Shown here one piece after another: positions 19,912 to 54,412 of a stretch of DNA of 64,000 bases. Source of the stretch: Isurus oxyrinchus (taxonomy: Eukaryota); contig JANJGN010000152.1 in assembly GCA_026770705.1 (NCBI GenBank), forward strand, positions 682,001 through 746,000, written 5' to 3'. The first letter of the stretch is position 1. The number at the start of each line of letters is the position of its first letter. The position numbers and the translations under genes are program-made. The notes beneath the pieces are model-generated. The model was not told where the DNA came from, made no database searches, and saw only the letters and a list, made by a program, of their open reading frames with translations.

Positions 19912-20437
19912 ATGTGAGCCCTGTTTTGATGTGACTTATCATTCTTCCCCTTTTAATCTGTAAGTATTAAAATGATTTCCTTTCTCTGGTGTAAATTATC
20001 CAAACGCCCCTTATAATAGTTATACCGCAATTTTGGACTGGAATGCTCGTAATCACTAAGTGTGTTAACAACTGTTTTCTATATTATTTTACAGGTAAAA
20101 CCCGAGGGAGTTCGGTAGTGCAGAGATAACATGAGTTGAAGTTACATGAGGAAGATAATCCGCAATTGAACTGTGATTACAACTCCAGTTCTGATGGATC
20201 CAGGTTGCTACTGGTACCGGCTGCACCCGAACCAGGCATCCCTTTTTCTGTTGTACCATGATAAAACCAGGCGCAGGGATGCCGAGTTTGCGAACAGAAA
20301 ATTCGATGCTCGTCATTTCCGTCATTATCAAGTTTTTCGTTTGCCAATTTCTATAGCGGAGCCTAAAGACAGCGCCATCTATTTCTGCGGATTGAGGATC
20401 ACAGTGTGACAAAGCCGCTCTACTCCGTACAAAAACA
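19912..20437 (+). pseudogene. TCR alpha/delta V pseudogene with intact RSS
   Basis: Damaged leader with gtaagt donor at 19960; V exon from 20095: SSVVQR*...QLNCDYN, frameshift, CYWYRLHPNQ...DSAIYFCGLR; RSS cacagtg (20400)-22-acaaaaaca. Confidence 0.9.
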
Positions 20438-21763: not shown

Positions 21764-21991
21764 ATGAGGCTTATGCCGCATCCTCATCTGATTTTATTGT
21801 GGCTGATGTTCGGATAGAAGCAGTAAAAAAGATGCAGATTTTACCAAAGAGAAATTCGAGGCAGGTCAGACTAACGAAGGAAGGTCATTTCCTCTTACAA
21901 TCACTCGAGCAGAAATCCAGGAGACCGCCGTATATTTCTGTGCGCTGAGGAACACACTGGTTTAAAACTCATCTGTGGCTATACAAAAACC
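21764..21991 (+). pseudogene. TCR V pseudogene with intron and 5' half of the V exon deleted
   Basis: Leader MRLMPHPHLILLWLMFG fused to DRSSKKDADFTKEKFEAGQTNEGRSFPLTITRAEIQETAVYFCALR; RSS cacactg (21953)-23-acaaaaacc. Confidence 0.9.
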
Positions 21992-28374: not shown

Positions 28375-28666
28375 GATATCTGAGCCATGGAGATATTGTC
28401 GCTCAGGCACTATTCGTAAGGCTTAAGACAGAAACAGACGCGGCAGCTGGTACCAACAACAAGCTGAAACACAGCCAATGCTTAGTTTATGTAATGCTTC
28501 AAAGGTTTTGAAAAATAAAGCAGATTTTGCTAAAATGCATTGGTCTGCAAATGTCGGCAGCTTGACAAAATTCATTTGCCATCACTGGGCTGTATCTAAC
28601 TGCAATTTATTCCTGCGCCCTGAGGGTCACCGTGTTGGAAACAAGTTAAACCCTCATACAGGTACA
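28375..28666 (+). pseudogene. TCR V pseudogene
   Basis: SHGDIVAQ...SWYQQQAETQPM...NKADFAK...AITGLYLTAIYSCALR; RSS caccgtg (28628)-23-acaggtaca; deletions and frameshifts. Confidence 0.75.
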
Positions 28667-29815: not shown

Positions 29816-30727
29816 ATGTCTCCTGTTGCTTTGTATTTATTCCTCACAGCAGCAGCTCTTTTCACCGGTAGGTTCATAAATTGTACAATTCTGCGAGTCA
29901 CATCTTTACCATTCCCTACATTCAATCGGACAGTTCGATTAACAGGTGGTAAAAATATGTTGATCTCAAATGAGAAAATCATCTGGATCCACTTTTTCGC
30001 TGCACGGTAGTAGGAAAGCTACCCGAATGAATGAGGCTGGAAGAGTTAAAGTGAGGCTACGGGCCCCGCCGGTGTCGGAGACGGACTTTGACAAATACCA
30101 AAGCTTTAAACTCACCGAGAGTTTTCACTTTCCCTTCAAATTACAGGAAACGAAGCTGAGGACCTGATTTCGATAGAAGGAACCGAATGTTCATTGAAGG
30201 AAGTTTTATTTATTCGGTCCAAGCACCTTCCGATTACAGCCACTGAGTGGTGGGGTATATATTTGTGTTTAGCTCCTCCGATTCATTTCTCAGGTTATTG
30301 TCCAGGGTGATGATCCTATTAAAGCGCATGAACAAAGTGAAATGATATCGTTTAATTTAATGTTACTCTTGGCTCTTACAGGACATTGTCGAGGAGATTC
30401 CGTTTCACAGGCACCGCCTGCAATCACAGTGAGTGAAGGAGACAACGTTCGGTTGTTCTGTAATTATACAGCTACATACAGCAACGATCTCAACTTATTC
30501 TGATATCGTCAGCATCCCAGCGGATCCATGGAGTATCTGTTGCTGAGGACGAGATACACCGAGAACAAAGAGAGATTTCCTGGGGACCGTTTTTCAGCGG
30601 AGCTCAACGATTCGATCGGCACCGTCCCGCTTAAAGTGTCTGAAACAGAACTGGCAGACTCCGCGGTGTATTACTGCGCACTGAGACTCACAGAGACTCG
30701 GGGCTGGGCTGAAACTGTACAAAAACT
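29816..30727 (+). pseudogene. TCR alpha/delta V segment with a single nonsense codon (conserved FR2 Trp, TGA at 30501)
   Basis: Leader 29816-29867 MSPVALYLFLTAAALFT|gtaggt; V exon 30382-30688 GDSVSQAPPAITVSEGDNVRLFCNYTATYSNDLNLF*YRQHPSGSMEYLL...DSAVYYCALR; RSS cacagag-23-acaaaaact. Confidence 0.95.
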
Positions 30728-46241: not shown

Positions 46242-46529
46242 ATGCAGCAGGCTGTGCATATCCGACGTGTATGCGGGTAAAAAGGCTCTATTTATACGAA
46301 AAGTGACTTCAATATTAACATTCAGTCATAATGGACAAAAGTGGTGGTTTGTACAGCCGCGAATGTACGGACAATTCTCGCAGAATGCCGCCTGCACTCC
46401 CTGTGCCACAGAGAGGGAGCTTTCCCAGCTGCATTGAATTATTGGAGCCGCTGCCTTCCACGGCCCATTCAGCGAGGAAGGGAATAGAAAACTAACCTCC
46501 TGTTCTTCTTCTCTACCCTTCCACCCATA

Positions 46530-46880
46530 GAAACTGTTGATTTTGATCCACTCTACCCAGGCCCACATGATTTTAAGCACCTCTATCAGATCTATCCTGA
46601 ACTTTCCATTCTCCATGGAGATCAAGCCCAATTTCCCCAATCTATCCAATTAACTGAAGTTCTGCATCCCTGGGATGATTCTGGTAAACTTATCTGCGCC
46701 TTTTCTAAACCATTCACATCCCTCCTAAAGTGCGATGCTTGGAAGTGGACACAATGTTCCAGTTAAGGGGGAACCAGTGCTTTCCAAGGGAACAGTAGTA
46801 TTCCCTTGCTTTTAGACTCTATGCCTCTGTTATGATGTTGATAATCTCGGATGTTTTAGCACCACTTTCTCAGGCTGTCA
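46530..46880 (-). mobile_element. CR1 LINE fragment
   Basis: DRLGKLGLISMENGKFRIDLIEVLKIM. Confidence 0.7.
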
Positions 46881-47202
46881 GGCTTCAACCATTTATGCCC
46901 AAAAAGTGCATATGGCTTGTTGAAGAATGGATAATTGAATGAATTATTTTGGCGGGAGTACTGTAGGCGGCTCGAAGTATAAAAATATTAAAGGCTCTGC
47001 AGAGCCATAAAGAACGTGCGAACTTGATGTGTTTAACGATTTTATTCTGTGACACAAAATTGTAAGGTGAATTGAAAATACTTTCGTAGAGTGATTGCCT
47101 CCCCCTACCCCCTTCTGTGTGTGTGTGCATTTGCGTGTGTGTGTCTGTGTGTGTGTGTATACGTGTGTGTGTATGCTCCTTTCAACTTAAACCCGAAAAT
47201 GG

Positions 47203-47427
47203 ACAATTATTTTAACTCTTTCTGTGCTTTGTATCACTGTGTCTGTAATCCCACCATGTTCAGGTTTTTGTATAGCTCTCTCAGGGCTCTGTGTCACTGT
47301 GTGTCTGTAATTCCAACATGTTCATGTTTTTTGTACAGCTCTTTCCGTGCTCTGCATCACTGAGTATCTCTAATCCCCACTATGTTGAGGTTTTTGTACA
47401 GCTCCCTCCGTGTTCTATATCACTGTG
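47203..47427 (-). other. Tandem array of four 23-spacer RSS units (60-63 bp period) downstream of the supporting V
   Basis: Heptamers at 47421 (cacagtg), 47358 (ctcagtg), 47295 (cacagtg), 47235 (cacagtg); nonamers exactly 23 bp away at 47389 (acaaaaacc), 47326 (acaaaaaac), 47263 (acaaaaacc); fourth nonamer decayed. Confidence 0.93.
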
Positions 47428-47727
47428 CTGTGCACCGACTCAGTTCACAGTAATAAACAGCGGAGTCGCTTAGTTGTAGTTTGGAGATCGTTAACCAGCT
47501 GATTTTCTCGTTAGAATCGATAGAAGCAAAAATTCTCCCCCCGGCAGCGTTTTCTTTATTCTCCTCTCCTGAAGTGCATCTCTGAAGAAGATATTCAGGA
47601 GCCTGTCCTGGGGACTGACGGTACCAGTGTACTGTGCAGAACCCTGAATATTCACAGTTTAAAGTAACGGCGTCACCGACAGCAGATGTTTGTAGAGGCA
47701 AAATCCAGGAAATTATGGAACTGGAAT
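47428..47727 (-). CDS. Leaderless NAR-TCR supporting TCR-delta V segment, ORF intact
   Basis: Acceptor ttctacag|; (D)SSSIISWILPLQTSAVGDAVTLNCEYSGFCTVHWYRQSPGQAPEYLL...DSAVYYCELSR; extra CDR1 Cys; perfect 23-RSS; no leader seen between it and the NAR J; phase matches the J donor. Confidence 0.92.
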
Positions 47728-49204
47728 CTGTAGAATAAGAAAATGAACACTATCTTTTTGTTCAGCCACTGTTTATCCAGGAGAATCTGTCAATCGCGCG
47801 AATAGCTCTGTTTTTTGCAGTAATTTAATTTGCTGGAAGCCTATTTGAACCATGTTCACTGTTATGAAAATATGACTAAATGGGGGATGAGGTGATGTTT
47901 TATTTTACGTCGCGAGTTCTTCCGATCAGGACTGCACTGCCTGAATTGGTGTAGGGGATAGATTCAGTAGTGACTTTCAAACGGATAATGGGTCTGTATT
48001 GGAAATGCAAATAAAAATATAGAGCTCTAGAGTAAATTCATGGGCGGTGGGAACATTTGTATTGCACTTTTAAAGGGTCAGCGCCAACACAATTGGCCGA
48101 ATATCATCCTTCCGTGCTGGATAATTCTATGAATTATATTACATTCCTGTTTCTATTTTCCTTGGTGAGAAACAAACACGAGGGAGTATTTTATGTTCAG
48201 GGAGGCAACCAGTTTCCAAAAAAACCATGTTTGTCAGAGAGGGACACAGCTGTGTGGCATCACTGCGCATAGCAAAATCCAACATAAACTGATGGGGTTC
48301 ATCAGCACTGATTGGGCCAAATCAAGAGTGAGCATCTCTCGTGGTGAAAGGTCAATCACTTACTGCGGTTTATAACTGCTCAGGAATTTCTATCTGCCTT
48401 TTGCTCTATTTCATTATGCTCTGTCAATAGGGTCCTATTTTCTCCAGTTCAGCTTAATATCAAATAGGTGCAATTAATTTCATTTTATTTCTTTAATTTC
48501 ACATTCCCTTTATTTCACATTTATTATATGCTGTTGCCTTTTTTGCAACCGTGGGAACTTGTCCCAATCTCTCTCAGTTGTCGGCTGGGTTTAGTTTATT
48601 CAGTTTCCGCAGTGGTTTTACTGTTACTCACTGGGAACTGCCTCTTCCGGCTCTCTGACAATTTCAATTCTTTCCGCAAGTTAACTGATTGTCTGCCGGG
48701 TTCACTGGATGGAGTTTTCTCTCAATTTTACATTATCGAGAAAGAAGAATGAGGAAGAGGAATGGGCCATTCAGCCTGTGTATATAATCAATTCCCGCTT
48801 GACCCTACCAGAAATCTAATTGACCATTTACATCCAGCTCCCTGTGTTGGTCTGTTCCATTCTCCCTCCTCTATTTTCAAGTGTGCCAATAAATATATCA
48901 ATACTACCTCCAACCTCTCCCTGCGGCAGCAAGTTCCACATTCTGACCTGCCTTTATTTAAATTCATTTGTCTTAAATGTTTGAACTGTTCTGTTAGCTA
49001 CTGTCATGTGTTGACAGCTGTTACTTTAGACTCAACTTGTCCAGGTTAAACCCGTTCAATATTGAAAGATTTATATGGATTCTCCTTGTGGTTCTGTATT
49101 CCAGAAAAAAGAGACCCAGCCTGTTCAATCTTCCCAGAGAGATGTGGATTGTTGATGATTGTTTCTTCCCTCAGGAGTGTAAGAAACCAAAGCAGAGAAT
49201 CCAA

Positions 49205-49750
49205 TCAATAGAAGCAGGAGCCACCATATCACCTTTCAAACCTGCTCAGCCATTCAGTAATATCCTGGCTGATTTACAACCGCAACGTCACATTCCCGCA
49301 CTCTCCCCATATCCCTGATCTCTTTAGTGTCCGAAAACCTATCGAATGTTGTCTAGAATGCATACAGATTATGAACACCCACCGCTCTCTGAGTTACAGA
49401 ATGCCACAGATTAACAACAGTGGTTCTATTGAAGATTTATTTTCCTTCTCAGTTCTAATCGATGACTCTTTATTCTGAAGCTGTGACCCCGAGTTATATA
49501 CTCCTCAGTCTGGGGAGACACTGACCCAGAATCTGCCCTATCAAGTCCCTTCAGAATATTATATGTTTTCATGAGATCACCTCTCATTCTTCTAAACTCT
49601 AAGAAATATAGGCCGAGACGACTAAATCTCATCCCATTGGGCAATCCCTTCATCTCACGAATCAGTCTGATGAATCTTTGTTGCACTCATTCCAATGACG
49701 ATTGATCTCCCTTCTGTAAGGGGACCAAAACTTTACACAGCATTCCGGAC
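49205..49750 (-). mobile_element. CR1 LINE 3' fragment in the J-to-supporting-V intron
   Basis: QQRFIRLIREMKGL...LEFRRMRGDLMKTYNILKGLDR. Confidence 0.85.
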
Positions 49751-50664
49751 TGGAGTCTATTTCAGTCCTTCCCTCCATAAACCTCACCTACCACCGAGTC
49801 GGAAATTACTTTGAAAATCGCCCAGAAATCGTCCAATCGTTCTCTCCCTTTCGATTATTTTTTTCTTGCTGGTTCTAAATGAGCATTCTCCTTGTTTATA
49901 ATTGTTTCCTTATGTCCCTTTTCTCCTTTATAAGATTAATACATCATCCTCACCTTCTCACTGCACTGTGCTGTTTCAATTCACAGGAATCAGAGATACA
50001 GATAAATTACAGCAATCCCATATCTCAAACATCTACATTCAATATAGAGAAGTGTCTGCATTTCCAAACTTTCACATTTCATTTTGAGGACGGAAAAGGA
50101 GGAAAGTGATTGGTTCTATAAAGGCAATTGAAAGAAATGGCACAGACAATGTCACTAATTTTCGTGACTGATTGTCCAAATATAGAATTCAACCTGGACC
50201 CACATCAGGATCTCATATATCTGAGGCCCCTTGTGTCACTCTCCCGTTTTTCTTCCGGGTCAGGTCTGGAACGAGCCGCTGCAGGTATCCGAACTGGCCG
50301 CAGTTGTATTGAGTTTATTAACCCGGTACCTCATTCACATTGTGCGGCTCAGACAGCAATCTGCTGCCCAGGAGAGAGCTCTGGGACCTCGCTCCAGGGC
50401 TCTAAGGGACAGATAGATCTGCCTCGGTCACAGTTAACACCGGGTGTGTAGTCCCGAGTGTTGACAATCTGCGCTCATTAAAAGCGATTCAGAGTGTGAG
50501 AGTCCGTGGTGTGGATGGTGTCCCCGATGTGCCCGTTGAACTAATAATGGTCCAGATTCCGTCAACTCTAACATCTCCCCCAAACACCACTGATATCAAT
50601 AATAAACTGACGGTGAACATTACCCGAGACAGGCTGTAACCCGGCGGAGTATGGAGTCACTTAC

Positions 50665-50750
50665 CGGCTGTAACAGTCAACACTGTCCCGGATCCATCCA
50701 CATAATATTTCCACAGTGACTCCGCTCTCAGTGTCCCCGGTACAACAACC
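50665..50750 (-). CDS. NAR-TCR J segment (coding 50665-50711) with 23-RSS
   Basis: KYYVDGSGTVLTVTA|gtaagt; heptamer cacagtg 50712-50718, 23-bp spacer, nonamer acaacaacc 50742-50750. Confidence 0.93.
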
Positions 50751-51056
50751 ACCGACACCTTAACCTGCCGGGAAATCATCATCAGACAGTAGAAACTGCC
50801 CAATTATTCAACTGATTTAAATAAATAAACAATTTTCAAAGTCTCTGTCGGTTCAAACTCTTCTTTTTAAGGCACTGAGCTCAGAGTAAATGGTCCGGGA
50901 ACGAGATAATACCTTCACAAAAACCGAGCAGAACAACAAAGAACGATAACTGAATAATGGAAATTACAATGAATTGTAATCAGATTCCAGAGATAATAAC
51001 ATCAACCTGACACTTCACTATCCGGGCGCGGAGAATTTATATTGTGATTGGGCAGA

Positions 51057-51131
51057 GGTATTTGTTAAGGTCTCTCCCACTGTGATTCCAGGTACCCCAT
51101 CCACATAGTGTTACAAGTCAGTATAAAATCC
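51057..51131 (-). other. NAR-TCR D segment (51085-51103) flanked by 12-RSS on both sides
   Basis: D = tggatggggtacctggaat, open in all three frames (WMGYLE/GWGTWN/DGVPG); J-side cacagtg-12-acaaatacc; V-side catagtg-12-ataaaatcc (heptamer position 3 mutated). Confidence 0.88.
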
Positions 51132-51428
51132 CTCAGGTACTTGCGAAGATTTGGGGACATCATAAACAGCGGGGGCAGCGGTTCCCGGTTCCAGCTGTTA
51201 GACCAGGATCACATCTGGCGTTAGGGGTTTCTAACTGGGATCAATCATTCCCAATCCCCATTCACTGACACCAATCCCGGGAAAGACATCACCATCCACA
51301 CACACTCAAGATGTTAACGGCAATAATCCAGTCTCATTATAAAATAGACGGTGTGACGCGGAACTGTGGGGGTTTAACTGCAGATTAACTCCGCTCTTTC
51401 ATTTGTTTCTGTGATAATCTACAGTGAG

Positions 51429-51945
51429 AGTTTTTGTATCGCGGGAAGCTGAGACCCATCACTGTGTATCTGTAATACCGGTACTAAGCTTTACAGTAAT
51501 AGGTGGCGGTGTCTTCAACTCTCAATTCCTGAATTTCCAGCGAAAATGTCTTTTGTGCTTTATTCACCGACACAACAAATCTCCCCCCACTGGAGATCCG
51601 CTCCCGCTCTGTCCCGGTCTGGGTTTGTCTGAAGAAATATCCCGTTTGGAAATAATCCCGCGAAGCACCGGAGAAAACACAGGTGATGGTGAGAGACTGA
51701 CACTCCTTCCTGGTCACCGCTGCAGGGGTCTGTGTCACTGACTGACTGAAAAAGCCTGGAAATTAAACAGAGAGACTTTAATGGACCATCAGAGAACCAC
51801 AGTGCGGGGTTAAACCCCAGACAGTGTCTGTAGTTGGGATGGACTCGAGCAGCTTTATATTAAATCCACACAATGTCGGTTTGTTTGATCGCTACTCACG
51901 GGGTAAACAGATACACAGCGTGAAAACAAGAAGGACATCGTTCTT
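51429..51945 (-). pseudogene. NAR-TCR V segment (IgNAR-like); leader 51900-51945, V exon 51467-51755, 22-RSS 51429-51466; apparently inactivated
   Basis: FFSQSVTQTPAAVTRKECQSLTITCVFSGASRDYFQTGYFFRQTQTGTERERISSGGRFVVSVNKAQKTFSLEIQELRVEDTATYYCKA*: CDR2-deleted NAR fold with FR1 Cys; leader (K)NDVLLVFTLCICLP|gtgagt has AAG where ATG is expected; RSS cacagtg-22-acaaaaact. Confidence 0.92.
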
Positions 51946-51962
51946 CTGCCTGGAGCTGAGGG

Positions 51963-52072
51963 TTTATATGACGGGGAGCTGGAGACTGCAGTCCTGGACT
52001 GCACTGGGAGACCGGGCCTCAGAGCTAGACTGAAATACTTTAGGGGGATCGAAGTTGATTTGCATGGGGCGG
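51963..52072 (-). promoter_or_regulatory. NAR-TCR V promoter: TATAAA (51963-51968), octamer ATGCAAAT (52058-52065), GC box (52066-52072)
   Basis: Motifs read directly upstream of the leader exon in Ig VH-promoter order and orientation. Confidence 0.6.
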
Positions 52073-52924
52073 TACCGCTGAGATCATTGATGGGCCGGAC
52101 GGTTCCCAGGTCGCTGGCTAAGTGTTGTGTGAATAAGAGACAGGTTTATAAAAGGAGGCTGCAATTTGCCGACTCCACATTTGGATTGTGATCCGGATGT
52201 GAAAGCCCCTCCCACAATACTCTGGTGTACAGGAGTGGGGAAGAGGAGCTTTTCTTTCTGCCAGTTGTGCTGCCGCCTTCATTTCCCCACTGGAATGAAC
52301 TGGAAGGTCGGTGTATGTGTTTGTTTTGGGTGGTGTTTGTTAAAGGTAAAATGTGGGCACAGGGCACCAGGTGAATCCCCGCGTACCGCTCTTATTCTAA
52401 TATTCTGGACATTGTTTAGCATCGCCCTGAATGGGCTGGTGGGGCATCAGTTAGACGTCTGACCTGAAGGCCGGCGCCTCAGGTCTGGCATCTTCCATGG
52501 CCCAGCGACTGGGGTTCAGGTTACAATATGATGAGGTGCAGTTACATTACTAATATCCTGGCAGACGTACACAACATACACCAAGGCTAAGTAGCAGCTG
52601 GTTAGCTCCGCTGGCTAGGTGGCTAGTGTCTGGTTTGGAATAATGCCAATAACATGGTTTCTGTCCGCGTTCTGGCTGAGGTTGACTTGGGTCCTTTCTG
52701 CTCCTGCGAGTGGAAGGCAATTAAAAACCACGACAAACAAAGCTGCCAAGAAAACAGCTCAATGCGAAGTAATTGCAGAAAATCGTCCAAGGACCTGCCC
52801 AGGCGCAGAGCACACGTGAATGAATGCAAACTCTCCCTGTCATTTAACCAAATGCTTCCTGCACCAGCCCTGCGGTGCGTTATACGTATTTCAGTCATGT
52901 TTGATTTCCAGTTTGGGAATACAC

Positions 52925-54177
52925 AAAGACAAGTCAGAATGAGGAACCTGCTGTGGCAGGGAATAGTTGGAAATAGCATTGATGTATTTATTGGAACACT
53001 TGAAAATACAGGACGGAGAACGGAACAGACCAACATAGGGAGCTGGATGGAAATAATCAGTTAGATTTCGGGCGGGGTCAAATTGTAATGGATTATATCC
53101 ACAGGCCGAATGGCCCATTCTTCTTTTTCATTATTCTTCCTCTGTAATGTAAAATTGAGAGAAAACTCCGCCCAGAGATCCCGGGAAATAATCAGTCAAT
53201 GTGCGGAAAGAATCGAAATTGTCAGAGAGCCGAAAGAGGCAGTTCCCAGTGAGTAACAGTAAAACCACTGCGGAAACTGAACAGACTGAAACCAACCGAC
53301 AGCTGAGAGAGTTTGGGGCAAGCTCCCACGATTGGAAGAACCGCAAACAGCAGAACGTAAATGTGAAATAAAGGAAACATGAAATAATATAAATAAAATG
53401 AAATTCATTGTGAATATTCCAAATGAACTGAACTGCAGAAAATTGGAGCCTATTGGTAGAACATAGAGAAATAGAGAAAAGGACAGATAGAAGCTCCCGG
53501 ACAGTTTAAAACCGCAGTAAATGATTGACATTTGACCACTGATGTTAACTCTCGGTTTGGCAAAATCGGTGCTAATGATGCCCATTTTTGTTGGATCTTG
53601 CAATGCGCAGATGTGTTCCTCTGCGACAAACATGTTTTTTTAAAAAACTGATTGCCTCACTGATCATAAGATGTTGCATCTGGTTTGTCTCTCAACAGGG
53701 AAAATAGAAACGGGAATGTAGTATAATTCATAGAATTATCCAGCATGCAAGTTTGATATTCGACCCATCGTGTAGGTGCTGCATCTTTAAAAGTATAATT
53801 CAATTAATCCCACTACCCAAGAATTTTCTCCATATCCAGCGCAGATCCATTATCAGTTTGAAAGGTTCAATGGAATCTATTCCAATCAGGCAGTGAAGCC
53901 CTGATTGGAAGATTTCGCTGTGGAAAAGAAAATATCACCTCATTCCTGACTTGATCTCAATTTAATAACCGTGAATACGTTTCGCACCGGCTTCAAACAA
54001 AGAAAATTACTGCACAAACAGAGCTATTCACGCGATTGGCAAATTCCCCCGGACAAACACTGGCTAAACGAAAAGATATATATTTTTTTTATCCTCCAGA
54101 TTCCAATTCCCTGGTGTCCTGGAATCCCCCTGTACAAACCCCTGCTGCCGGTGACACAGTTGCTTTAAACTGTGAAT
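52925..54177 (+). repeat. Inverted duplicate of ~47655-48955 (supporting-V intron and 5' exon)
   Basis: Collinear reverse-complement similarity, e.g. parallel pseudo-ORFs 48468/53131 and 48762/52891. Confidence 0.9.
54100..54177 (+). pseudogene. 5' fragment of a second leaderless supporting V-delta
   Basis: tcctccag|(D)SNSLVSWNPPVQTPAAGDTVALNCE*, truncated at the breakpoint. Confidence 0.8.
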
Positions 54178-54412
54178 AGGGATGGGCAGGTAATACTGGT
54201 TCGGCCAGCAACGTTCAATATCACGAAAGCATGGAAAAAGCCGTCCTCAATCTGTAGCCCGTTCGGACAGTCAAACCAACGAGTGTTGCTACTGCACTTG
54301 GGTCTCTGTCAATTATCTCAGTTCGAGTACTGACAAAGTTCTGTTAGAAGGGCATTTTTTTATCTCTCCGCAGTTGCTGCCTGACTTCACTTTTTATATA
54401 ACCCAGCCCCTA

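Follow-up and report, generated by a model that had tools for sequence, protein, structure and literature searches.

A probable pseudogene copy of the NAR-TCR family in Isurus oxyrinchus and germline-joined NAR-VDJ exons in its sister cassettes

The doubly rearranging T-cell receptor (TCR) of the delta type found in cartilaginous fish, NAR-TCR, was reportedly described by Criscitiello et al. in 2006. A member of this family is examined here in a stretch of 64,000 nucleotides from Isurus oxyrinchus (GenBank assembly GCA_026770705.1, contig JANJGN010000152.1, positions 682,001 to 746,000; hereafter the window, on contig C152), whose minus strand harbours a cassette made up of V (variable), D (diversity) and J (joining) segments followed by a second, supporting V. 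The window copy is of interest only as a correction, since it belongs to a known family and is broken; novelty lies with its sister cassettes, 11 of which hold one or three leaderless NAR-VDJ exons, joined in the germline, between J and supporting V. A broken cassette in the window and joined exons in its sisters are together very probably the best explanation of the observations as a whole.

Features of NAR-TCR are set out in the available portions of PMC1845163, PMC3457774, PMC5931798, PMC6795676 and PMC12227049. The V carries a Cys in the a-b loop and lacks the Trp of WYRK, and the supporting V is leaderless, with a Cys in complementarity-determining region 1 (CDR1; PMC1845163, in part). 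On the established model, a working copy would have its V, D and J joined by RAG within the cassette (22/12, followed by 12/23) and its supporting V joined to D-delta and J-delta in a second rearrangement, after which splicing would yield a leader-VDJ-Vdelta-DJ-Cdelta chain. The Cys of framework region 1 (FR1) in the top domain would form a bond with the CDR1 Cys in the supporting domain below, as that model has it and as PMC1845163 proposes in the part available. The window cassette shares with the family the leader-V-D-J order, an IgNAR-related V with the a-b loop Cys and without the canonical Trp, and a supporting V-delta that lacks a leader, has the CDR1 Cys and carries a recombination signal sequence (RSS) of its own; it differs in being broken in three places, neither leader nor V being open. 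The 11 sister cassettes depart from a design of two V domains, each separately rearranged in the available descriptions, by the joined exons placed between them.

Three other systems invite comparison, each known here from available portions of the papers cited. Like V-mu-j of marsupial TCR-mu (PMC3457774, PMC7615758), the sister exons are invariant, germline-joined and situated beneath a rearranging antibody-like V, in genomic order and putatively in the protein. V-mu-j is itself the membrane-proximal V, the next exon encodes the constant region and it is thought to be retrotransposed, whereas the shark exons keep a leader intron, are of NAR type, are stacked and lie above a further rearranging V-delta. 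The TRD V-J of the newt Pleurodeles waltl (PMC12698447) is likewise germline-joined within a TCR-delta locus and without a leader of its own; unlike the shark exons, it forms a single conventional V domain that seems to borrow a leader, with neither stack nor NAR-type domain in the account available. IgNAR and the germline-joined immunoglobulin (Ig) clusters of sharks (PMC4279169) have in common with the present loci a CDR2-less V and germline joining, attributed there to RAG activity in germ cells; the window cassette differs in its single D and the loci in having no IgNAR constant exons, and whole antibodies are the described product of joined Ig clusters, whereas the sister exons are internal. 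No description of joined or stacked NAR-TCR exons was found in a literature search that left the main specialist papers outside, and the supplement of PMC3964593 gave no match for NAR-TCR terms.

The window cassette and its lesions

The original prediction described a complete NAR-TCR cassette, and the layout it proposed stands. A reading of 46500-53000 together with an RSS scan places leader, VNAR-like V, one D, J and leaderless supporting V-delta in cassette order, and the predicted absence of CDR2, spacer types, DGSGT motif and fitting splice phases were all recovered (Table 1). The intron from J to supporting V, put at 2.9 kb, measures 2937 nt and yielded 0 candidates for a leader-like exon with a GT(A/G)AG donor, as anticipated. 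Near-consensus RSS number five in 47200-52100, against 0 in 300 shuffles. In a search of the same genome for NAR V, 40 out of 168 candidates were scored, and the 40 matches to NAR V obtained in this way, the window copy and 39 others, are those to which all counts out of 40 refer; the V-RSS spacer was called as 22 bp in 39 of them.

The family assignment made from the sequence was borne out by comparison. In a 17-row tree the window V falls with IgNAR/NAR-type V domains (100/99) and the second V with supporting Vs (81/89). Identity of the window V with the NAR V in six gene models from sharks (P0002, P0007, P0020, P0026, P0039, P0044) amounts to 73-89%, and four of these models run V-J-supporting V-C-delta with no further V domains. 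Shark gene models carry NAR V and supporting V in cassette order, some with C-delta, and the closest named proteins come from lamniform sharks. VNARs are the best solved-structure matches of the V (7spp_C aligned with one gap, E 3e-21) and an IgNAR-type V is 52% identical to it, as would be expected of an IgNAR antibody cluster. That the locus is such a cluster, or an ordinary TRAV/TRDV pair, is nonetheless barely conceivable: tblastn with the constant part of P0178 matched no IgNAR-type constant domain in the window or 83 loci, one D is present against three per IgNAR cluster (PMC4279169, in part), an FR1 Cys (KECQ, in the a-b loop) is kept and the Trp absent (GYFFRQ) as in NAR-TCR, and the V does not group with TCR V domains. 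The further claim that automated annotation misses such cassettes needs amending, for RefSeq models of them exist in many sharks, although under uninformative names.

Completeness is the part of the prediction that fails, three lesions having been overlooked along with three RSS-like repeats behind the supporting V. Just after the leader ATG, 4 nt are absent relative to sister copies, and the ATG of the resulting 39-nt exon is out of frame with the phase-1 V acceptor; the deletion is unique to the window copy (1/40), 38 of the 40 leaders being in frame and open. An in-frame TAG stands at 51486-51484, directly after YYCKA and 20 nt before the V heptamer, where other copies have CAG (29/40) or other sense codons (5/40) and six in all have TAG. 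The third lesion lies in the 5' heptamer of D, which reads CATAGTG: CAC is intact in 34/40 copies, and CAT occurs in exactly the six that carry TAG. These six are 96.8-97.8% identical over about 7.2 kb and three of them lie at separate places on contig C26, so that the two changes do not come from one sequencing error; the subfamily was duplicated after the stop and the D-signal change had arisen.

Owing to the leader frameshift, the stop at the end of V and the broken D signal, the window cassette is likely a pseudogene copy rather than a working gene. When the first three bases of the heptamer are mutated, recombination is essentially abolished (PMC212687, in part), and the spacers (22, 12/12, 23) are 12/23-compatible, with a D 5' heptamer lacking CAC. 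The cassette might still be complete and functional, its lesions being assembly errors or lost by junctional trimming, since the splice sites are intact, as are V RSS, J and supporting V, the stop is close to the V end and the leader deletion, found in one copy, is unconfirmed. This is very unlikely, however, as five other copies share TAG and CAT, at least 18 nt would have to be trimmed to remove the stop, and V and J both have 23-type spacers, so that D cannot be bypassed; rescue would take that trimming plus a working D signal. As the copy is likely a pseudogene, a transcript with the proposed VLTVTA-DSSSIISW junction is not expected to yield protein.

Several observations weigh against this account of the window. 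The leader deletion is private to it, and contigs from three DNA runs of the same sample neither confirm nor refute it: those of the undeleted sister form stop at 51935/51936, and among the contigs listed none bridges the deleted form. The normal D 3' nonamer of this NAR-TCR family deviates at position 6 from the mammalian rule, and RSS rules established in mammals may therefore not apply absolutely in this case. Finally, C152 gave no C-delta match; such matches are confined to C26 (29.90 Mb) and C242, contigs that each carry sister cassettes, and C-delta linkage is thus seen for the sister cassettes of those two contigs only. The two C-delta-like exons (L082, C242:617 kb; L083, C26:29.902 Mb) differ at many residues and represent either two genes or very divergent alleles.

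Germline-joined exons in sister cassettes

In 7 of the 39 fetched sister loci the first J is followed by another NAR V that is already joined, in frame, to a J of its own. With a joined exon as query, 40 of 213 candidates were scored; these and further fetched loci brought the set of joined exons to 25 of full length and three with a 5' truncation, besides one partial V; 15 pattern matches for joined exons all fell on exons already found. Nineteen of the 25 are open, 336-348 nt long and in phase 1 at both ends, and every one of these lies between an open leader-bearing unrearranged V and an open supporting V. The open exons are distributed over five V-D-J cassettes with one exon, four V-D-J cassettes with three and two cassettes read as VD-J. 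One stacked cassette is on the contig of the window (C152:554-565 kb; L026, L046), and C26 alone accommodates 11 open joined exons in 7 cassettes. The six broken exons comprise four behind a frameshifted V, one before a supporting V with a stop and one without a partner in the 29 kb fetched.

All joined exons have kept the leader intron, which indicates joining at the DNA level and not retrotransposition. The junctions of both groups of joined exons align, suggesting one joining event; a V-only tree, in which joined and rearranging V take two label changes, is compatible with one origin. Their own leaders are dead in 16 of the 19 open exons (stop at codon 4 in 11, ATG changed to AAG in 4, donor loss in 1), and their splice sites resemble those of working VDJ exons. 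The joined exons keep the FR1 Cys, and 24 of the 25 full-length ones have an extra Cys at one fixed position in CDR3, the 25th being frameshifted; among rearranging Vs a Cys is found in the germline CDR3 end in 2/40 and in CDR1 in 0/40.

The 11 joined exons that share the leader stop are under purifying selection (omega, the ratio of nonsynonymous to synonymous substitution rates, 0.55; log-likelihood -946.87 versus -950.30 at omega 1, twice the gain being 6.85), and for all 19 open exons omega is 0.60. Pairwise means, which are not independent, give a nonsynonymous divergence (dN) of 0.118, a synonymous divergence (dS) of 0.227 and a leader-intron divergence of 0.215 for ten representative open exons, and a dN/dS of 0.85 for rearranging Vs. 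When neutral evolution was simulated on the flank tree (length 0.46), 1 of 2000 runs left all 11 exons without stops and with their splice dinucleotides intact, and 20 of 2000 retained all four Cys; the exons had been identified through their resemblance to an intact one, and divergence may be overstated by the flank alignments.

On another reading, the joined exons arose as by-products when RAG acted once in the germline, were tandemly amplified, and are now decaying and skipped in splicing. Decay would account for the six broken exons among the 25, the three additional 5'-truncated ones and the partial one, for the near-identity of many copies and for the abundance of broken V segments in the window itself. 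We judge decay improbable, given an omega below 1, a dN lower than both dS and intron divergence, the single neutral run in 2000, the splice sites of working type and the fact that the same exons are open in white-shark models.

Two kinds of sister locus stand apart. At C26:30036268, 30013658 and 29987221 (L052-L056) a NAR V runs directly into a degenerate D-type 3' signal, with a J some 400 nt further along, an arrangement taken to be a partly joined VD-J; the basking-shark model P0002 shares the V end of these loci. Four dead cassettes (C140:1305 kb, C210:747 kb, C26:33.158 Mb, C26:36.381 Mb) combine a frameshift in V with a deletion that reaches from the end of V into D and a joined exon with a stop, and a poly-G run is present in three.

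A possible longer receptor or a borrowed leader

The top of a V domain is where CDR3 is found, whereas the a-b loop is at its base. After upstream V-D-J rearrangement, the J donor would meet a joined exon whose acceptor and donor are like those of a normal VDJ exon, which would favour its inclusion by default. The CDR3 Cys of each joined exon would bond the FR1 Cys of the domain above and, as the joined exons have both, every cysteine in the stack would be paired. We think it somewhat probable that the joined exons would be spliced in as fixed spacer domains and give TCR-delta chains with three or five V domains. For the structure that this would imply in some sharks, namely a telescoping TCR-delta stalk in which a rearranged NAR V stands on one or three leaderless joined NAR-VDJ domains, each disulfide-locked to its upper neighbour by a Cys acquired at the domain top, and these on a rearranged V-delta, the chances seem evenly divided.

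Alternatively, the joined exons may borrow the upstream leader, skip the unrearranged V and give an innate-like NAR-TCR, a receptor fixed at two V domains. This would account equally well for the frames being open and the leaders dead. The pre-joined TRD V-J of the newt is leaderless, seemingly uses the leader of a neighbour and is highly expressed (PMC12698447, in part), germline-joined shark Ig clusters serve neonates (PMC4279169, in part), and the white-shark models P0011 and P0012 show leader, joined exon and supporting V in succession. Such borrowing is possible but on the whole doubtful. It would leave the CDR3 Cys unpaired, with no CDR1 Cys as partner, and would not explain why 4 cassettes have a succession of three open joined exons; moreover, the upstream V need not stay open, yet it is open for 19/19 open exons and frameshifted for 4/6 broken ones. 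Leader borrowing and stacking can coexist.

The stacked arrangement has other points to contend with. The white-shark model P0011 joins the leader directly to a joined exon, as borrowing predicts, and 3 of the 19 leaders of open joined exons are themselves open, though atypical (Asp in the core). Unplaced contigs may be haplotype copies of C26. Selection at omega 0.55-0.60 is moderate, the ratio of nonsynonymous to synonymous differences (pN/pS) in CDR3 of the joined exons is 1.34, the CDR3 Cys alone was kept in 661 of 2000 neutral runs, which is not significant, and three 5'-truncated copies with the same leader stop were excluded from that simulation.

Gene predictions from other sharks offer a comparison. 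The white-shark RefSeq models P0005, P0011 and P0012 have the same junctions and Cys as the joined exons, and P0005 places two joined exons on a supporting V. A horn-shark (Heterodontus francisci) model, P0010, consists of J, a partial NAR V-J and a full NAR V-J before the supporting V; its NAR V-J domains have identical CDR3 and an extra CDR1 Cys, and it may be a modelling or assembly artefact. Taken as modelled, P0010 hints that the stack design may have arisen twice.

Among four sequencing runs compared with a stacked cassette, X14 and X5 cover introns as DNA would, and for X21 and X24, presumed to be RNA, no splice joints were listed, an outcome without weight either way. Introns flanking a joined exon were covered by contigs of two other organisms. 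Three short proteins were considered as candidates for spanning the J-to-NAR-V splice, and none did so.

Were the longer chains to be made, the TCR would extend past the three extracellular domains of NAR-TCR and TCR-mu, and germline RAG joining would have found a second use within a TCR locus, as a source of structural spacer exons, in parallel with the origin of supporting Vs by leader loss. The longer reach of an unpaired antigen-binding domain would bear on what NAR-TCR and TCR-mu bind, their ligands being stated as unknown in the available portion of PMC7615758.

Cassette features and neighbouring relics

Table 1. Positions of the elements of the window cassette and of further stacked cassettes
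Element	Position	Strand	Remarks
TATAAA box	51963..51968	-	upstream of leader; putative promoter element
Leader exon, 39 nt	51900..51938	-	frameshifted; GTGAGT donor intact; one of 40 leaders compared
NAR-type V exon	51467..51755	-	no CDR2; FR1 Cys in KECQ; no canonical Trp
V RSS, 22-bp spacer	51429..51466	-	CACAGTG-22-ACAAAAACT; RSS scan
D with both 12-spacer signals	51057..51131 (D itself 51103-51085)	-	5' heptamer CATAGTG; 3' RSS of family type
23-RSS (50750-50712) and J (50711-50665)	50665..50750	-	J KYYVDGSGTVLTVTA; DGSGT; phase-1 GTAAGT donor
Leaderless supporting V-delta exon	47428..47727	-	open; phase-1 acceptor; CDR1 Cys present
Supporting-V 23-RSS	47389..47427	-	consensus; RSS scan
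Three more RSS-like repeats, ~62-bp period	47203..47364	-	47364; 47301 (consensus); 47241 (degenerate)
Other stacked cassettes (among others)	C26:37.89-37.92 Mb; C26:38.75-38.77 Mb; C210:438-460 kb; C151:1067-1089 kb		genome G000

The V of the window copy has the CDR1 SGASRDYFQTGY, and the CDR1 of its supporting V is two residues shorter than in most copies. Tandem RSS repeats with the same period of about 62 bp, in two to six copies, are found behind 21 of 30 supporting Vs. The octamer ATGCAAAT at 52065-52058 was considered as part of the cassette and rejected, being present in only 5/40 copies.

Just upstream of the cassette, within 52920-54180, lies a relic of a supporting V on the plus strand (54099-54176), inverted and truncated, with its upstream intron kept. 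Relics of conventional TCR alpha/delta-type Vs are scattered through the window in both orientations, on the plus strand at 20209-20400, 21800-21953, 28448-28573 and 30399-30689 and on the minus strand at 54957-54676, 60181-59885 and 62633-62259; most are visibly broken by stops, frameshifts or truncation. Elsewhere, the proteins P0068, P0071 and P0093 are tandem-V membrane proteins, each V of which ends in a J-like GxGT strand.

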